From the IMG/VR virus record IMGVR_UViG_2534681761_000010: a stretch of DNA of 44,374 bases; one strand, given 5' to 3'. Made by a program: the position numbers and the translations under genes. The notes beneath the pieces are model-generated. The model had not been told where the DNA came from. It saw nothing but the letters and a program-made list of their open reading frames with translations, and did not search any database. This stretch comes from a virus. Taxonomy: Duplodnaviria > Heunggongvirae > Uroviricota > Caudoviricetes. Shown here piece by piece: positions 6,232 through 11,642 of this stretch (positions are counted from its first letter, which is position 1; every line of letters begins with the position of its first letter).

Positions 6232-6255
6232 GTCCGCTTTGTGCCAAGAGCGGAC
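6232..6255. repeat. 24-bp palindromic element copy A (GTCCGCTTT-GTGCCA-AGAGCGGAC), 9-6-9 architecture
   Basis: Near-identical to copy B2 (22 of 24 by eye); lies just downstream of the GIY-YIG gene. Confidence 0.6.
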
Positions 6256-6292
6256 TTTGCAAAATGGGGGTTATTTCAATCAAAACGTAACG

Positions 6293-7237
6293 TCACAACC
6301 AGCCGACGCTCTCTCGCCATTTATAATTAGTAACTTTATCATTTTCGCTTATTTTTTTAGATATAGAGCGCGGCTCTCTTCCTAGATACTCAGATATTTC
6401 TATCGGGGACAAATCAAAATCAACAAGCATGACTCTAAGTTTTTCCATTTCCTTTAAAGTCCAAGGCTTGCCATAATTTTCATAAAGAGATACCTTATGC
6501 TCCCTGATAGTTCGCTTTCTCTGAGTTTCACTTTCCCTCTGAAAAATCTCGCTTTTAAATTGTGAACGGAACTCTTTACAGAAGTTGTTATCAGTTTTTT
6601 TGTTATATAGATTGCTAAAAATAAGCTGGGATGCCGGGTCTAAATCAGGTGTGTTAATAATGAAAACTTTGACCTTTTCCATATAGGGATATTCAATTTT
6701 ACCCAATATGCTTAATTGCTTTATATTAAAAAAACCTCTCAAATCAAAAGATTTAATGAGCTTTGATTGGATTACACTTTCAATCCTGCTTGCATTTAAA
6801 TAACAGTACTTTGCCATTGGAAGGGCCCATACTACCAGTTGAGGAATATATTTTTCTAATGCAATGCTCTGCCAATCAGTATCAAAGGTTTGGCTTTTTG
6901 CTAGCATGTTTTTCGGCAAATCAGAATACATTGTGGTAGATGCCCATATCTTATAATCATTCGCCAAGGCTTGATAGTATTTTGTGTGGTTATGAATTTT
7001 ATAAGCTGACATGAAGCGATAAACGTCTTCGTCGTGACCAGCGTCGTAAATTGTTCGATTTCCTCTAAGATAACCGTCGTAATGTTCGGTTATCCTTCTA
7101 CCTACATTACAACTTACCCCAACGTAAACCACACGACTGAAAAGTCCTTTATGGACAATAAGATAAACTCCGCTACAGCCAGATTTCCTGGCCTCTGATA
7201 GAGAACCTAAAAATCTCCATTCCATAATTAAATCCAT
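6293..7237 (-). CDS. GIY-YIG nuclease domain protein with C-terminal HTH (free-standing homing-endonuclease-like)
   Basis: N-terminal GVYLIVHKG..VVYVGVSCNVGRRITEH fits the GIY-YIG motif with conserved Arg and His; C-terminal SPIEISEYLGREPRSISKKI is HTH-like; AT-rich codon usage unlike flanking phage genes. Confidence 0.65.
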   Translation of the reverse strand: MDLIMEWRFLGSLSEARKSGCSGVYLIVHKGLFSRVVYVGVSCNVGRRITEHYDGYLRGNRTIYDAGHDEDVYRFMSAYKIHNHTKYYQALANDYKIWASTTMYSDLPKNMLAKSQTFDTDWQSIALEKYIPQLVVWALPMAKYCYLNASRIESVIQSKLIKSFDLRGFFNIKQLSILGKIEYPYMEKVKVFIINTPDLDPASQLIFSNLYNKKTDNNFCKEFRSQFKSEIFQRESETQRKRTIREHKVSLYENYGKPWTLKEMEKLRVMLVDFDLSPIEISEYLGREPRSISKKISENDKVTNYKWRESVGWL

Positions 7238-7405
7238 AATTATTGCTACTGTTTTTGTTTATCATTATTTTCGTGAAACTTCAACAATTTTATCCAAAAG
7301 CTAAGGGCAAAGACTTATATAATTATACTTGTCATCGTTAGCGATTATATAGAGTAGTGGCGCTGACCTGCTCCCTGGTGATTCACACAGAATGCTGTTA
7401 GTAAT

Positions 7406-7429
7406 GTCCGTTCCTCGCTCTCAGCGGAC
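7406..7429. repeat. 24-bp palindromic element copy B1 (GTCCGTTCC-TCGCTC-TCAGCGGAC)
   Basis: Shares outer arms GTCCG/CGGAC with A, B2 and C; spacer TCGCTC identical to copy C. Confidence 0.55.
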
Positions 7430-7447
7430 CTTCAGCTCAGTGATATC

Positions 7448-7471
7448 GTCCGCTCTGTGCAAAGAGCGGAC
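7448..7471. repeat. 24-bp palindromic element copy B2 (GTCCGCTCT-GTGCAA-AGAGCGGAC), perfect 9-bp arms
   Basis: Perfect inverted 9-bp arms around a 6-bp spacer; same orientation and near-identical to copy A. Confidence 0.6.
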
Positions 7472-7784
7472 GTTGGTATGCAAGAGCCCTCCAAAAGTTG
7501 ATGGTTGGTTTGCAGGGGGGCTTAAAGAAACTGCACTTATCAAGTTGAAGTTCTGTATTCAGCGAAATCGTAGCACTCTGACGATAAGTAACTCCGGTAC
7601 TCCGCTCTTCGATGAAGAACCAGAGTAATCCCCCCGAAAAACCAGCGCATCAAAATTGGATCTTCAGCGGTAGCTTATCGGCTATCGGAAGTACAGGTGT
7701 GGATTCGTGGTGAATTGCTTTGATAATAAACGATTAATACGGAAAAACGCATTAATCATTTATTAGCTTTTAGTAAACCACAAT

Positions 7785-9450: not shown

Positions 9451-9451
9451 T

Positions 9452-10054
9452 ATGAACACGTCACCGTGGAACAAAGACCGTATCATAGGCCAAAAAAGAC
9501 CACTTCAGATATCTCATATCTGGGGTATCCGAATCCGACTTGAACTGGAAGGTAAAACTCGCGATTTAGCTCTGTTCAACATGGCCCTGGATAGTAAGCT
9601 TCGAGGCTGTGATCTGGTCAAACTCAAAGTATCTGATGTTGCATATGGTGGCTCTGTTTCAAGCAGAGCAACGGTGTTGCAACAGAAAACCGGTAGCCCT
9701 GTTCAATTTGAGATAACCAAAGGGACAAGAGAAGCTGTTGCTGCATTGATACAGCTTAGCAATTTGCACAGTAAAGACTTCTTGTTTCGGTCTAGGGTCG
9801 GAACTAACCAGCACATTTCAACCCGGCAATACAACCGAATCTTTCATGGGGGGGTAGAAAAGCTTGGTCTCGAAGATTCGCTTTACAGCACACATTCCAT
9901 GAGAAGAACAAAACCTTACCTGATCTACAAGAAAACCAAGAATCTCCGGGTGATCCAACTTCTGTTGGGTCATAAGAAACTGGAAAGCACAGTCCGTTAT
10001 CTGGGCATTGAAGTCGATGATGCGTTAGAGATTTCTGAATCGATTGAAGTCTAA
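9452..10054 (+). CDS. Small tyrosine recombinase (FimB/FimE/Xer catalytic-domain size class, about 200 aa)
   Basis: Box I-like ALDSKLRGCDLVKLKVSDV (Arg), HSMRRT (H-x-x-R), LLGHKKLESTVRYLG (His..Tyr); too short to carry the arm-binding domain of phage integrases. Confidence 0.7.
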   Translation: MNTSPWNKDRIIGQKRPLQISHIWGIRIRLELEGKTRDLALFNMALDSKLRGCDLVKLKVSDVAYGGSVSSRATVLQQKTGSPVQFEITKGTREAVAALIQLSNLHSKDFLFRSRVGTNQHISTRQYNRIFHGGVEKLGLEDSLYSTHSMRRTKPYLIYKKTKNLRVIQLLLGHKKLESTVRYLGIEVDDALEISESIEV

Positions 10055-10060
10055 GGTTGT

Positions 10061-10082
10061 CAGGGCTGCAACAGCAGCCCTG
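10061..10082 (+). terminator. Stem-loop (9-bp perfect stem CAGGGCTGC, 4-nt loop) directly after recombinase stop; no U-tract
   Basis: CAGGGCTGC-AACA-GCAGCCCTG starting 7 nt after the stop codon. Confidence 0.3.
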
Positions 10083-10413
10083 TGCCATAAGCGGAAGTAT
10101 TTAACAACTATCAGTGTTGTTCAACAGATAAAGGGGCACTTGATTTTTTCTGTTCTCAGGAAATGATAAAAGCGCGTCGGTTCAAGCCTGCTTAACGGGA
10201 GTTTGTTAATCCTGTTGCCGTGACGTTTTGACACCATTATGATGGGGAGACACTTAATGTATGAAGGTTCCGCCACTTATACCTGTCCAACAACTGCCTC
10301 GGATGTTTCTTTGTATGAATAAGTGGTAATGAGTAGTGAATCGCTAACAGTCACCCGAACAATCGGTGCCTGCAATTAATTCTATATTCTAAACGAGGGG
10401 GAGATTATTACAC

Positions 10414-11394
10414 ATGAAATTTAAGGACAAGAACCTTAAGGCTCTCGCGGAATGTATCATAGGAGATAATAAGGCATTTCTGTATCGTTCAAGCAGTCAC
10501 ATCACTGAATTTTTCCAGGACTGCGGCATGGATGTTACTCATGACGGATCCACTCGGTGGAAATGGACGGCCCAGAGGCTTGAAGAACTTCTTTATGAGC
10601 CACAGTCAAAGCCACATACTTTGCCGGAAAGGTTTGTTCATGTGCTCAGAACTTTAATGTTAAAAGAAGATGCAATGGATGACGATCCAGGAAGATTAAA
10701 GGCGCTTGAAGAACTGAACAAGCCTTTGATGCGGGAAGGCTATGAGGCATTCTATGGTGACGATCGCCTTTTGTATATACGCCATACCGATACCAAAACG
10801 GTTTCAGTCAGTAATAACCCTCATCGGCCCTTAACGCCTCACGAAGTAGAATGCAGAAGGTTACTGACCGCGTTTCTTGATACCTGCTCAGAAGATGAGT
10901 TAATAGAAGATATTCTCCTTCCTTTATTCCGGCAACTTGGTTTTCACCGGATAACAGCAGTGGGACATAAAGATAAAGCGCTGGAATACGGGAAAGACAT
11001 CTGGATGAAGTTCACACTGCCAACTCAGCATGTTCTTTATTTCGGCATTCAGGCAAAAAAAGGTAAGTTGGATGCGTCCGGTGCCAGCAAATCTACGAAT
11101 TCAAACGTGGCAGAAATCTTCAACCAGGTACTGATGATGCTTGGCCATGAAATATTTGACCCAGAAACAAATAGAAAGGTGCTGGTAGATCATGCCTTTA
11201 TCGTTGCTGGCGGAGAAATTACTAAACAGGCGAGGAACTGGCTGGGCGGGAAACTTGATGCCAGCAAAAGAAGCCAGATAATATTTATGGACCGGGAAGA
11301 CATTCTTAATTTATATACTGTAAGTAATGTACCTCTGCCAACAGGTGCTCTCATCTCTGATGATGCCGTTAAGAACGATGATATTCCTTTCTAA
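10414..11394 (+). CDS. Hypothetical 326-aa protein, possible PD-(D/E)xK-like nuclease fold
   Basis: Strong SD GAGGGGGAG; motif GKDIWMKF...YFGIQAKKGK is compatible with D...(E/Q)xK but unverified. Confidence 0.5.
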   Translation: MKFKDKNLKALAECIIGDNKAFLYRSSSHITEFFQDCGMDVTHDGSTRWKWTAQRLEELLYEPQSKPHTLPERFVHVLRTLMLKEDAMDDDPGRLKALEELNKPLMREGYEAFYGDDRLLYIRHTDTKTVSVSNNPHRPLTPHEVECRRLLTAFLDTCSEDELIEDILLPLFRQLGFHRITAVGHKDKALEYGKDIWMKFTLPTQHVLYFGIQAKKGKLDASGASKSTNSNVAEIFNQVLMMLGHEIFDPETNRKVLVDHAFIVAGGEITKQARNWLGGKLDASKRSQIIFMDREDILNLYTVSNVPLPTGALISDDAVKNDDIPF

Positions 11395-11618
11395 TCAGAA
11401 GTACGTCTTTTTCTGAAAGAATACGTGATAGGTAGCCACACCACACCTTTAGTGACCCCTTAATCTGGTAATATAACAGCCCGTATGAATGTCCGCGGCA
11501 TCGCGGGCTGAAATTTATTAAAAATACTTATTCATCAAGCTGGAGTAGTTTGCCGAGTAACTGTAAACGCCCAACTTAACCGGACCATTCACTTTTAGAT
11601 TGCTACCAGCAAACCAAC

Positions 11619-11642
11619 TTCCGTTTCTCGCTCAAAGCGGAC
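11619..11642. repeat. 24-bp palindromic element copy C (TTCCGTTTC-TCGCTC-AAAGCGGAC)
   Basis: About 20 of 24 identical to B1 by eye, same spacer TCGCTC; marks the right edge of the AT-rich island. Confidence 0.55.

Follow-up and report, generated by a model that had tools for sequence, protein, structure and literature searches.

In P2-like phages, satellites, and other prophages, anti-phage defence genes occupy predictable hotspots, where their turnover is very fast. A 2026 survey of thousands of P2/P4 elements speaks of integration "through a presumably different mechanism" and of related chromosomal islands "of unknown mobility". At the P2 Z/fun hotspot, inverted repeats were reported in 2004 (Nilsson, Karlsson & Haggård-Ljungquist, Mol Biol Evol 21:1) and, according to the paraphrase of that paper in PMC8987985, it was proposed that phages and bacteria exchange the flanked gene by a site-specific process. 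Other systems of short sites and mobile modules are the pdif (XerC/XerD-site) modules of Acinetobacter plasmids (Blackwell & Hall 2017; Balalovski & Grainge 2020, both as cited in PMC9771954) and the integrons, whose cargo also includes anti-phage systems according to a bioRxiv preprint (10.1101/2024.07.02.601686). Here, we describe an array of gene cassettes at positions 6232-11642 of a 44,374-nt window, i.e., the whole stretch of DNA that was analysed, to which all positions refer. The window is a lambda-like prophage, and the array occupies its variable locus, with a DUF977 gene on one side and mok/hok on the other. We consider it likely that this locus undergoes natural cassette exchange at two heterospecific sites in a three-cassette array, a 200-aa tyrosine recombinase encoded in the array being the likeliest enzyme. 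The original prediction for this DNA, made without database searches, had proposed a cassette system nested in a lambdoid prophage and driven by a recombinase at tyrosine-recombinase-type sites of 9-6-9 layout; its core idea, with like-spacer sites as partners, is upheld by comparison with relatives, whereas its details were incomplete.

Two alternating types of 24-bp sites

The sites are dyad-symmetric over 24 bp and are made of a 9-bp arm, a 6-bp centre, and a second 9-bp arm. They come in two forms, T1, GTCCGCTCT-GTGCCA-AGAGCGGAC, and T2, GTCCGCTCC-TCGCTC-AnAGCGGAC. Six of them, at 6232, 7406, 7448, 9389, 10073, and 11619, lie in the window, all on one strand and in strict T1/T2 alternation, and the rest of the 44-kb window holds no further such site. 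They are listed below together with the linker that separates the second from the third; names in parentheses are those of the original prediction.

6232-6255, + strand: site T1-a (earlier A), GTCCGCTTT GTGCCA AGAGCGGAC, arms complementary at 8/9 positions
7406-7429, + strand: site T2-a (earlier B1), GTCCGTTCC TCGCTC TCAGCGGAC, arms 6/9
7430-7447, + strand: inter-cassette linker of 18 bp, CTTCAGCTCAGTGATATC, conserved in other arrays
7448-7471, + strand: site T1-b (earlier B2), GTCCGCTCT GTGCAA AGAGCGGAC, arms 9/9
9389-9412, + strand: site T2*, GTCCACTCC TCGCTC ATAAGGGAC, degenerate, left of the recombinase gene
10073-10096, + strand: site T1*, AGCAGCCCT GTGCCA TAAGCGGAA, degenerate, right of the recombinase gene
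11619-11642, + strand: site T2-c (earlier C), TTCCGTTTC TCGCTC AAAGCGGAC, arms 6/9

The pattern TCCGNTN10AGCGGAC matches the 44 kb only at 6232, 7406, 7448, and 11619, and none of 100 dinucleotide shuffles of the window contains a match; the elements are real, well beyond chance. These four were the elements initially noticed, with the sequences given here, and their division by spacer into GTGCCA/GTGCAA (A and B2) and TCGCTC (B1 and C) is confirmed, whereas the degenerate T2* and T1* had been missed. The segment is also AT-rich as had been noted, with a guanine-cytosine (GC) content of 0.34-0.45 across the array vs 0.50-0.63 in the late genes.

Neighbouring cassettes are joined by a composite of T2, the 18-bp linker, and T1 (window copy 7406-7471), which is also present in E. 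coli chromosomal islands, Superficieibacter, Pluralibacter, and Cedecea. Among 5426 complete E. coli genomes, 644 contain this composite, with a median of one copy and a maximum of three. Being so low in copy number, it is not a repetitive extragenic palindromic (REP)-type repeat, a possibility for which the original prediction had advised a count and which is hereby rejected.

In terms of sequence, the two site types are related, since T1 and the reverse complement of T2 are the same at all but about 3 of the 24 positions, and the motif RTTNNTAAC continues inward from both cassette ends. The T1 sites form strong hairpins compared with shuffled sequences (z -4.4 and -6.6), whereas the T2 sites fold no better than shuffles (z -2.2, -0.4, and -0.6). 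As only T1 folds in this way, the sites more probably function as duplex dyads than as terminators or as folded single-stranded substrates. The left arm of T1* also doubles as the 3' half of a stem-loop at 10061-10081, as found by folding. As for the centres, that of T1-b (7457-7462) reads GTGCAA, one change from the near-universal GTGCCA; if centre identity sets partner choice, this change could lower exchange at T1-b and thereby help to fix the array.

Cassettes shared by unrelated backbones

The sites delimit three cassettes with the following cargo, the first being an open reading frame (ORF) of 314 aa.

6293-7237, - strand: cassette 1, 314-aa ORF with a weakly GIY-YIG-like N-terminus (Pfam GIY-YIG, E 0.017)
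7785-9134, - strand: cassette 2, PD-T7-1 anti-phage defence protein, 449 aa (PADLOC PDLC04073)
10414-11394, + strand: cassette 3, 326-aa protein (ORF) without family match

The 449-aa protein, initially listed as an unknown, turns out to be PD-T7-1, with a match to PADLOC PDLC04073 at E 7e-157 that aligns residues 8-447 with model positions 2-448 of 452. The PD-T7-1 family belongs to the experimentally selected anti-phage genes reported by Vassallo et al. (2022, PMC9519451), and a defence role is predicted from this family for the window copy. The 326-aa protein, also listed initially as an unknown, has no match in Pfam, PADLOC, PHROG, and NCBIfam profile searches. What had been called a GIY-YIG nuclease retains a likeness to that Pfam family in residues 22-62 of the 314-aa ORF, which is marginal at 15.8 bits, below the cut-off of 22.6.

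The PD-T7-1 cassette (7448-9408) was found by megablast against phage genomes to be 96-99% identical in the Yersinia P2-like phage vB_YpM_46, where its neighbours are the tail-fibre-assembly gene G and the sheath gene FI, and in the Morganella phage IME1369_01, where it lies behind the tail fibre gene. In the lambdoid phage mEp460_ev081, a PD-T7-1 cassette 95.6% identical over the matched stretch is the sole insert between the DUF977 gene and mokW, thereby providing the single-cassette relative that the original prediction had suggested looking for, with junctions exactly inside the elements. PD-T7-1 is thus present in four backbones, and the edges of homology fall inside T1 and T2, starting in B2 and ending within 9389-9412. 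In the same line, cassette 1 occurs alone, 99.3% identical, in a chromosomal island of E. coli strain SW071611, where the inner arms AGAGCGGAC and GTCCGTTCC are retained and the outer arms differ. Since the PD-T7-1 and 314-aa cassettes each travel alone, the natural cassette unit is T1-cargo-T2, and not the segment between like-spacer elements (A to B2, B1 to C) that had been proposed.

More broadly, in viral contigs retrieved with a T1-pattern scan and local scanning, T2 lies 0.7-5.8 kb downstream of T1 in the same orientation. Cassettes reach about 5 kb and may hold several genes, and at least 35 different cargoes were seen. At the DUF977-hokD locus, these include AbiH, SMEK with a methyltransferase, ABC-3C, SIR2 with an adenosine deaminase, QueH, and others, and defence genes are abundant in the cargo as a whole (Gabija, ThsB, AriA, HEC-08, several PDC families, AbiH, and SIR2). 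Cassettes always show one orientation relative to T1 and T2, no inverted cassette having been seen among the phage matches and viral contigs. Besides, two T2-like sites on the E. coli SCU-313 chromosome (local coordinates L034:10369-11779) enclose a distant relative of PD-T7-1 (25% identity), which is located beside IS5 and a few kb from a copy of the recombinase gene.

The switch between backbone and cargo

The lambdoid locus was compared among the window, mEp460, Tritos, Evi, and E. coli prophages. In most of them, the left arm of T1, GTCCGCTTT after GCGTGGTT, is constant and the right arm varies with the cargo; conversely, the right arm of T2, AAAGCGGAC followed by TAGAAGGTTAGC (TAGAAGG), is constant and the left arm varies with the cargo. 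The sites of the window follow the same rule. More precisely, T1-a combines an outer (left) arm typical of the lambdoid backbone with the inner arm of cassette 1, T2* combines the left arm of the PD-T7-1 cassette with the centre and right arm of the recombinase module, T1* combines the left arm and centre of the recombinase module with the right arm of cassette 3, and the outer (right) arm of T2-c, together with TAGAAGGTTAGC, is the constant lambdoid right junction. Likewise, PD-T7-1 retains its inner arms in different backbones, with the outer arms being swapped.

This segregation can be expressed in numbers, to be read with the reserve that the sites are phylogenetically non-independent: for pairs of T2 sites with a common outer flank and different cargo, the difference amounts to 0.32 nt for the outer arm vs 3.12 nt for the inner one, with the outer arm as the closer of the two in 55 of 59 pairs, and the corresponding T1 pairs show the same trend in a weaker form (0.67 nt vs 1.16 nt). 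As the outer arm stays with the backbone and the inner arm moves with the cargo, the switch between the two lies in the 6-bp centre. A central junction of this kind is what conservative site-specific recombination of like sites (T1×T1, T2×T2) leaves behind, and the segregation of half-sites excludes a transposon that moves with complete ends. The sites of mEp460_ev081 are exactly the hybrids expected from A×B2 and T2*×C exchange.

Finally, a synthetic L1-centre-R2 query detected no empty L1-x-R2 site at the lambdoid locus in the 5426 E. coli genomes, its single-piece matches being ordinary cassettes aligned via T2, plus one internally deleted cassette. Empty sites would not be expected if T1 and T2 were unable to recombine with each other, and their absence thereby fits cassette exchange. 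The nearest approach to an empty site is found in E. coli strain A20 (NZ_CP028755.1, local coordinates L228:690-965), where T1 and T2 of an AbiH cassette persist and are separated by about 215 bp; this remnant lost its AbiH gene content by internal deletion.

A 200-aa tyrosine recombinase between half-sites

The recombinase module comprises the gene and a hairpin over its start, in which the ribosome-binding site (RBS) is paired.

9416-9454, + strand: hairpin pairing the RBS and ATG of the recombinase gene (folding, ΔG -14.3 kcal/mol, z -7.4)
9452-10054, + strand: tyrosine recombinase of 200 aa, catalytic domain only (Pfam PF00589; phrog_216)

As had been predicted, the protein is a tyrosine recombinase, with 63.9 bits against PF00589 (Phage_integrase; cut-off 27.1, E 2e-17, residues 37-186) and a match to phrog_216 (integrase) at E 6e-31. 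The residues R51, K79, H148, R151, H174, and Y183 do not vary among 24 homologues, nor in homologues down to 60% identity; they are presumably the catalytic R-K-HxxR-H-Y set, a candidate assignment based on the motifs of the family. The hairpin has a 15-bp stem that includes AGGAG and ATG and is kept with compensating changes in Proteus and in the homologues at 60% identity, which suggests tight translational control or repression of the recombinase.

The gene itself does not behave as one of the flanked cargo genes, among which it had been counted in the original prediction. Upstream of it, 15 of 17 contexts read [variable 9 nt]-TCGCTC-ATAAGGGAC-AACCATACTCAAATCTCCCACATTGCAGGAGATTTGAGT-ATG, with conservation from TCGCTCATAAGGGAC on, and downstream of it, 13 of 15 contexts read TAA-GGTTGTCAGGGCTGCAACAGCAGCCCT-GTGCCA-[variable 9 nt], with CAGCCCT before the centre. 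The recombinase gene hence has the outer half of T2 on its left and the outer half of T1 on its right, i.e., it stands in the "linker" position that is otherwise held by the 18-bp linker or by a whole phage genome. Among 22 viral-contig loci with the recombinase at 83% identity or more, 14 show, in the orientation predicted, a T1 upstream and/or a T2 downstream, and contig ends cut several of the other 8. The same layout, with a T2 closing the downstream cassette, is found in Proteus (recombinase 87% identical, arrays behind prophage tail genes) and in Idiomarina (79% identical, cassette downstream of gcvP), and homologues at 60-63% identity keep the architecture with a changed sequence. In E. 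coli, the 685-bp recombinase segment (9414-10098) is present in 914 of the 5426 genomes, mostly in chromosomal islands.

Two side observations concern these homologues. In Idiomarina sp. X4 (CP025000.1, local coordinates L233:8001-15534), the recombinase homologue downstream of gcvTHP is followed by T1* and, 6.9 kb further on, by T2, and the bracketed cargo consists of a two-component system, an EptA-type phosphoethanolamine transferase, PAP2, DAGK, and a sulfatase. This cargo looks like a lipid A modification module of the polymyxin-resistance type, as judged from its gene content, so that cargo would not be restricted to phage defence. In the distant homologues at 60-63% identity, from viral contigs of GC-rich hosts (local L174, L175, and L177), a hairpin after the stop codon is followed by (C/G)GGCCA-RAAGCGGAT, and further GGCCAA-AAGCGGAC sites lie nearby, which may point to a sister system whose sites have another centre.

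Proposed exchange and its alternatives

In the model that we favour, a cargo is the segment from T1 to the next T2 and a backbone the segment from T2 to the next T1, the latter being an 18-bp linker, the recombinase gene, or a whole phage or chromosome. The tyrosine recombinase would bind the shared arms (GTCCGC…GCGGAC) and exchange strands inside the centre, in such a way that only like sites recombine, T1×T2 being barred because the centres differ. A T1×T1 plus a T2×T2 event between two molecules would then swap one cassette or a block of cassettes, i.e., natural recombinase-mediated cassette exchange (RMCE), and a single T1×T1 or T2×T2 event within an array would free or insert a circle made of the cargo and a T2-linker-T1 junction. 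The 200-aa recombinase would act in cis in this prophage and in trans on phages devoid of it, such as the P2-like ones.

Several points weigh against this model. Recombination itself is read indirectly, without circle junctions or near-isogenic pairs that are one event apart. The pair statistics, besides their non-independence, are weak for T1, and pairs with the same cargo in different backbones (n=10) show no clear trend. The arms beside the recombinase gene (ATAAGGGAC and AGCAGCCCT) fit the consensus poorly. The gene is found in 4 of 27 T1-bearing viral contigs, all four being copies of this prophage, and in only those 914 of the 5426 E. coli genomes; since it is absent in cis from most phage cassettes and most E. 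coli genomes, the model has to postulate action in trans. The structure predicted for the recombinase is poor (AlphaFold pLDDT 56, pTM 0.43), and a sequence search of the PDB returned no solved homologue. Finally, exchange alone does not account for the origin of arrays and of the conserved 18-bp linker.

The best surviving alternative, which we nevertheless regard as unlikely, is that the sites would be portable homology or insulator-terminator hairpins, over which RecA or a phage Red/RecT-type system would promote homologous recombination (24-45-bp stretches plus flanks), the recombinase being a passenger. Conservation does extend past the 24 bp, in the form of about 55 nt before T1, RTTNNTAAC inside, and a linker-like stretch after T2, and would provide usable homology; moreover, the T1 hairpins are strong, the recombinase is missing from most phage cassettes, and a 2026 preprint credits hotspot turnover to recombination, with the mechanism unnamed. 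However, this alternative is weakened by the central junctions, which are confined to arm positions 9-16 and not spread over the homology, by the 9-6-9 dyads with two mutually exclusive alternating centres, for which it offers no rationale, and by the half-sites that bound the recombinase gene in all genera examined. The poor folding of the T2 sites also makes a common hairpin or terminator role unlikely.

A little less probable still is that the sites are real substrates of another enzyme, be it XerC/XerD of the host, the integrase of a phage, or some further recombinase, with a different role for the 200-aa protein, e.g., as a FimB-like invertase or a regulator. This idea keeps some weight because most phages that bear cassettes are without the recombinase in cis, as are 83% of the E. 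coli genomes. The size of 200 aa and weak NCBIfam matches also resemble the FimB/FimE invertases, and the Acinetobacter pdif modules are a precedent for the movement of modules by host Xer (as cited in PMC9771954). On the other hand, the integrases of the P2-like, lambdoid, and Morganella phages are mutually unrelated, and in E. coli, Proteus, and Idiomarina the recombinase gene lies between T2 and T1 half-sites, with flanks that co-vary with the gene. The T sites are also not known to bear any resemblance to dif and cer. A FimB/FimE-type invertase in particular is rejected on its NCBIfam scores (PRK09871, 27 bits vs a cut-off of 222; PRK09870, 19 vs 221) and on the single orientation of the cassettes, no inverted one having been seen.

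The last alternative, in which T1-cargo-T2 units would be non-autonomous transposons (mobile insertion cassettes or miniature inverted-repeat transposable element (MITE)-like elements) bounded by the sites as terminal inverted repeats and served by a transposase elsewhere, could draw on the likeness of T1 to the reverse complement of T2, on RTTNNTAAC inward at both ends, and on the many unrelated backbones, but is rejected as very improbable, since the outer arms remain with the backbone so that complete terminal repeats do not travel, no target-site duplication was seen at the junctions, insertions occur only at pre-existing T1/T2 loci and never at naive sites, with no empty site, and no transposase is associated with the cassettes.

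Flanking sequences and array ends

On both sides, the array is framed by the following features of the backbone.

5741-6163, + strand: DUF977 ("LygF"/Ren-like) gene, left backbone neighbour (Pfam PF06163, E 1e-28)
6176-6231, + strand: conserved left flank of the hotspot, ending …TTGACATTTTGTGGCACAGGGTAGAGCTAGCGTGGTT, like the sequence upstream of T1 in P2-like phages (alignment)
11643-11682, + strand: linker-like stretch and, after it, a decayed T1 remnant (TAGAAGGTTAGCTTGC GTCGGACTTGGCG…) (alignment)
12066-12278, + strand: mok/hok (HokD-type) toxin gene, right backbone neighbour (Pfam HOK_GEF, E 4e-23; same annotation in relatives)

The DUF977 gene is the conserved left neighbour in every lambdoid relative examined. 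The roughly 55 nt before the first T1 are alike in lambdoid, P2-like, and Enterobacter contexts and read TTGACAT…TGTGGCACAGRGTARAGC, which is promoter-like (window 6176-6231; local coordinates L032:780-835 for P2 and L045:2895-2950); the landing pad upstream of T1 seems itself to have moved between phage families. At the other end, terminal T2 sites are followed by a linker-like stretch of 16-18 bp and then by decayed T1-like sequence (window 11643-11682; local coordinates L230:5199-5240 and L231:11229-11270). In the light of these remnants beyond the terminal T2, the T2-linker-T1 composite seems to be the ancestral unit, array ends included.

Occurrence beyond the window and significance

In P2, the Z/fun gene is flanked by a T1 (GTCCACTCT GTGCCA AAAGCGGAC, at 15335) and a T2 (TTCCGCTTC TCGCTC AAAGGAAAC, at 17432) that share arms and centres with the window sites, and the P2 genome holds no T site beyond this pair, none being present at the tin/old hotspot. 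The constant parts in P2-like phages are AATCTGACA followed by GTCCGCT(C/A)T, and AAAGCAGAC followed by TGTCAGATT. In E. coli, the islands of ATCC 25922 and TUM2830 differ by whole cassettes at the sites. A contig scan with the arms-only pattern GTCCGCTC-N8-GAGCGGAC was flooded by chance palindromes in GC-rich genomes, with at least about a dozen usable Enterobacterales loci among the matches listed.

Two further observations were made on the spread of such sequences. In Morganella (IME1369_01, local coordinates L003:2996-5500) and Proteus (L235:3074-11377) prophages, arrays lie directly behind tail-fibre genes and beside umuDC, which is a third type of phage hotspot with the same sites. In Haloferula sp. 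BvORR071 (local L091-L102), a multi-copy palindrome, GTCCGCTC-AGAGGACT-GAGCGGAC, occurs at no fewer than 12 loci; it looks like an unrelated REP-type repeat whose arms are similar by chance or convergence.

Taken together, these data could be explained by a wider proposal, to which we give about an even chance: a so far uncharacterised platform, widespread in Gammaproteobacteria and made of the 200-aa recombinase and two alternating heterospecific 24-bp duplex sites, may carry out natural cassette exchange and be the missing mechanism that shuttles defence genes, and occasionally other traits such as the Idiomarina EptA-type operon, among the P2 Z/fun hotspot, the lambdoid hotspot, Mu-like and Morganella-type prophages, and "cryptic" chromosomal islands. 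The entry and exit of defence genes at hotspots thereby become testable at the bench with a 24-bp substrate and a 200-aa protein, T1×T1 and T2×T2 but not T1×T2 recombination being predicted. Besides, the site signature can be used to find cassettes of unknown function that are likely to hold new defence genes (e.g., the 314-aa and 326-aa ORFs), and a compact natural two-site cassette-exchange system might serve as a tool. More generally, the locus offers a clue to the way in which defence genes are exchanged between phages and bacteria.

Comparison with known systems

The original prediction had found no described element to which this one could be assigned. In the searchable literature, in which the 2004 paper is known by paraphrase only, no mention was found of the candidate recombinase, the two alternating site types, the linker, the arrays, the lambdoid DUF977-hok hotspot, or the spread in Gammaproteobacteria; likewise, a literature search with the site sequences returned no relevant paper, and the pipolin and P2/P4 hotspot papers are silent on the sites. 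The system is nevertheless not wholly undescribed, as the P2 fun repeats and the idea of exchange precede it. As at P2 Z/fun, the window cassettes are flanked by the same sequence elements, and the same flanked gene is found in phages and other contexts (PD-T7-1 in four backbones, cassette 1 in an island). Unlike P2 Z/fun, which lies between G and FI, the window array has DUF977 and mok/hok of a lambdoid prophage as its neighbours and contains three cassettes, a conserved linker, and a candidate recombinase bounded by half-sites. Beyond the work on P2 fun, two site types are resolved here and the junction is placed at the site centre.

The closest functional analogues are the Acinetobacter pdif modules, the integrons, and engineered cassette exchange. 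With the pdif modules, the array shares discrete modules, short arm-6-bp-arm sites of alternating polarity, the presence of the same module in unrelated backbones, and the lack of transposase genes. However, pdif sites are 28 bp long (11-6-11), with distinct XerC and XerD arms, and are served by host Xer, whereas the sites described here are 24 bp long (9-6-9), with near-identical arms and two centres, and a dedicated 200-aa recombinase is linked to the arrays. Xer/dif modules are hence rejected, given the symmetric arms of the 24-bp sites and recombinase scores far under the NCBIfam cut-offs (XerC, 44.7 bits vs 335; XerD, 27.5 vs 330).

As in integrons, a tyrosine recombinase gene stands beside an array of cassettes, each cassette ends in a recombination site, and one arm of the recombinase-adjacent site (T1*, compare attI) differs from those of the cassette sites. 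In contrast to integrons, each cassette has two different sites (T1 and T2) instead of one attC, with no GTTRRRY core, and the sites are short duplex dyads of which T2 does not fold, making folded single-strand substrates unlikely. Furthermore, the recombinase has 200 aa (about 320 aa for IntI) and is co-oriented with the downstream cassette, and the cassettes reach about 5 kb with several genes. An integron with attC sites is thus rejected on the two sites per cassette, the non-folding T2, and the scores against the NCBIfam integron integrase models (17.5 and 17.2 bits vs cut-offs of 435 and 265).

Finally, the array resembles engineered RMCE with heterospecific lox or FRT sites in that the arms are common, the spacers incompatible, and recombination restricted to like sites, without self-excision, in keeping with the lack of empty sites. 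RMCE was designed in the laboratory, and the T1/T2 array would represent a natural counterpart of it.

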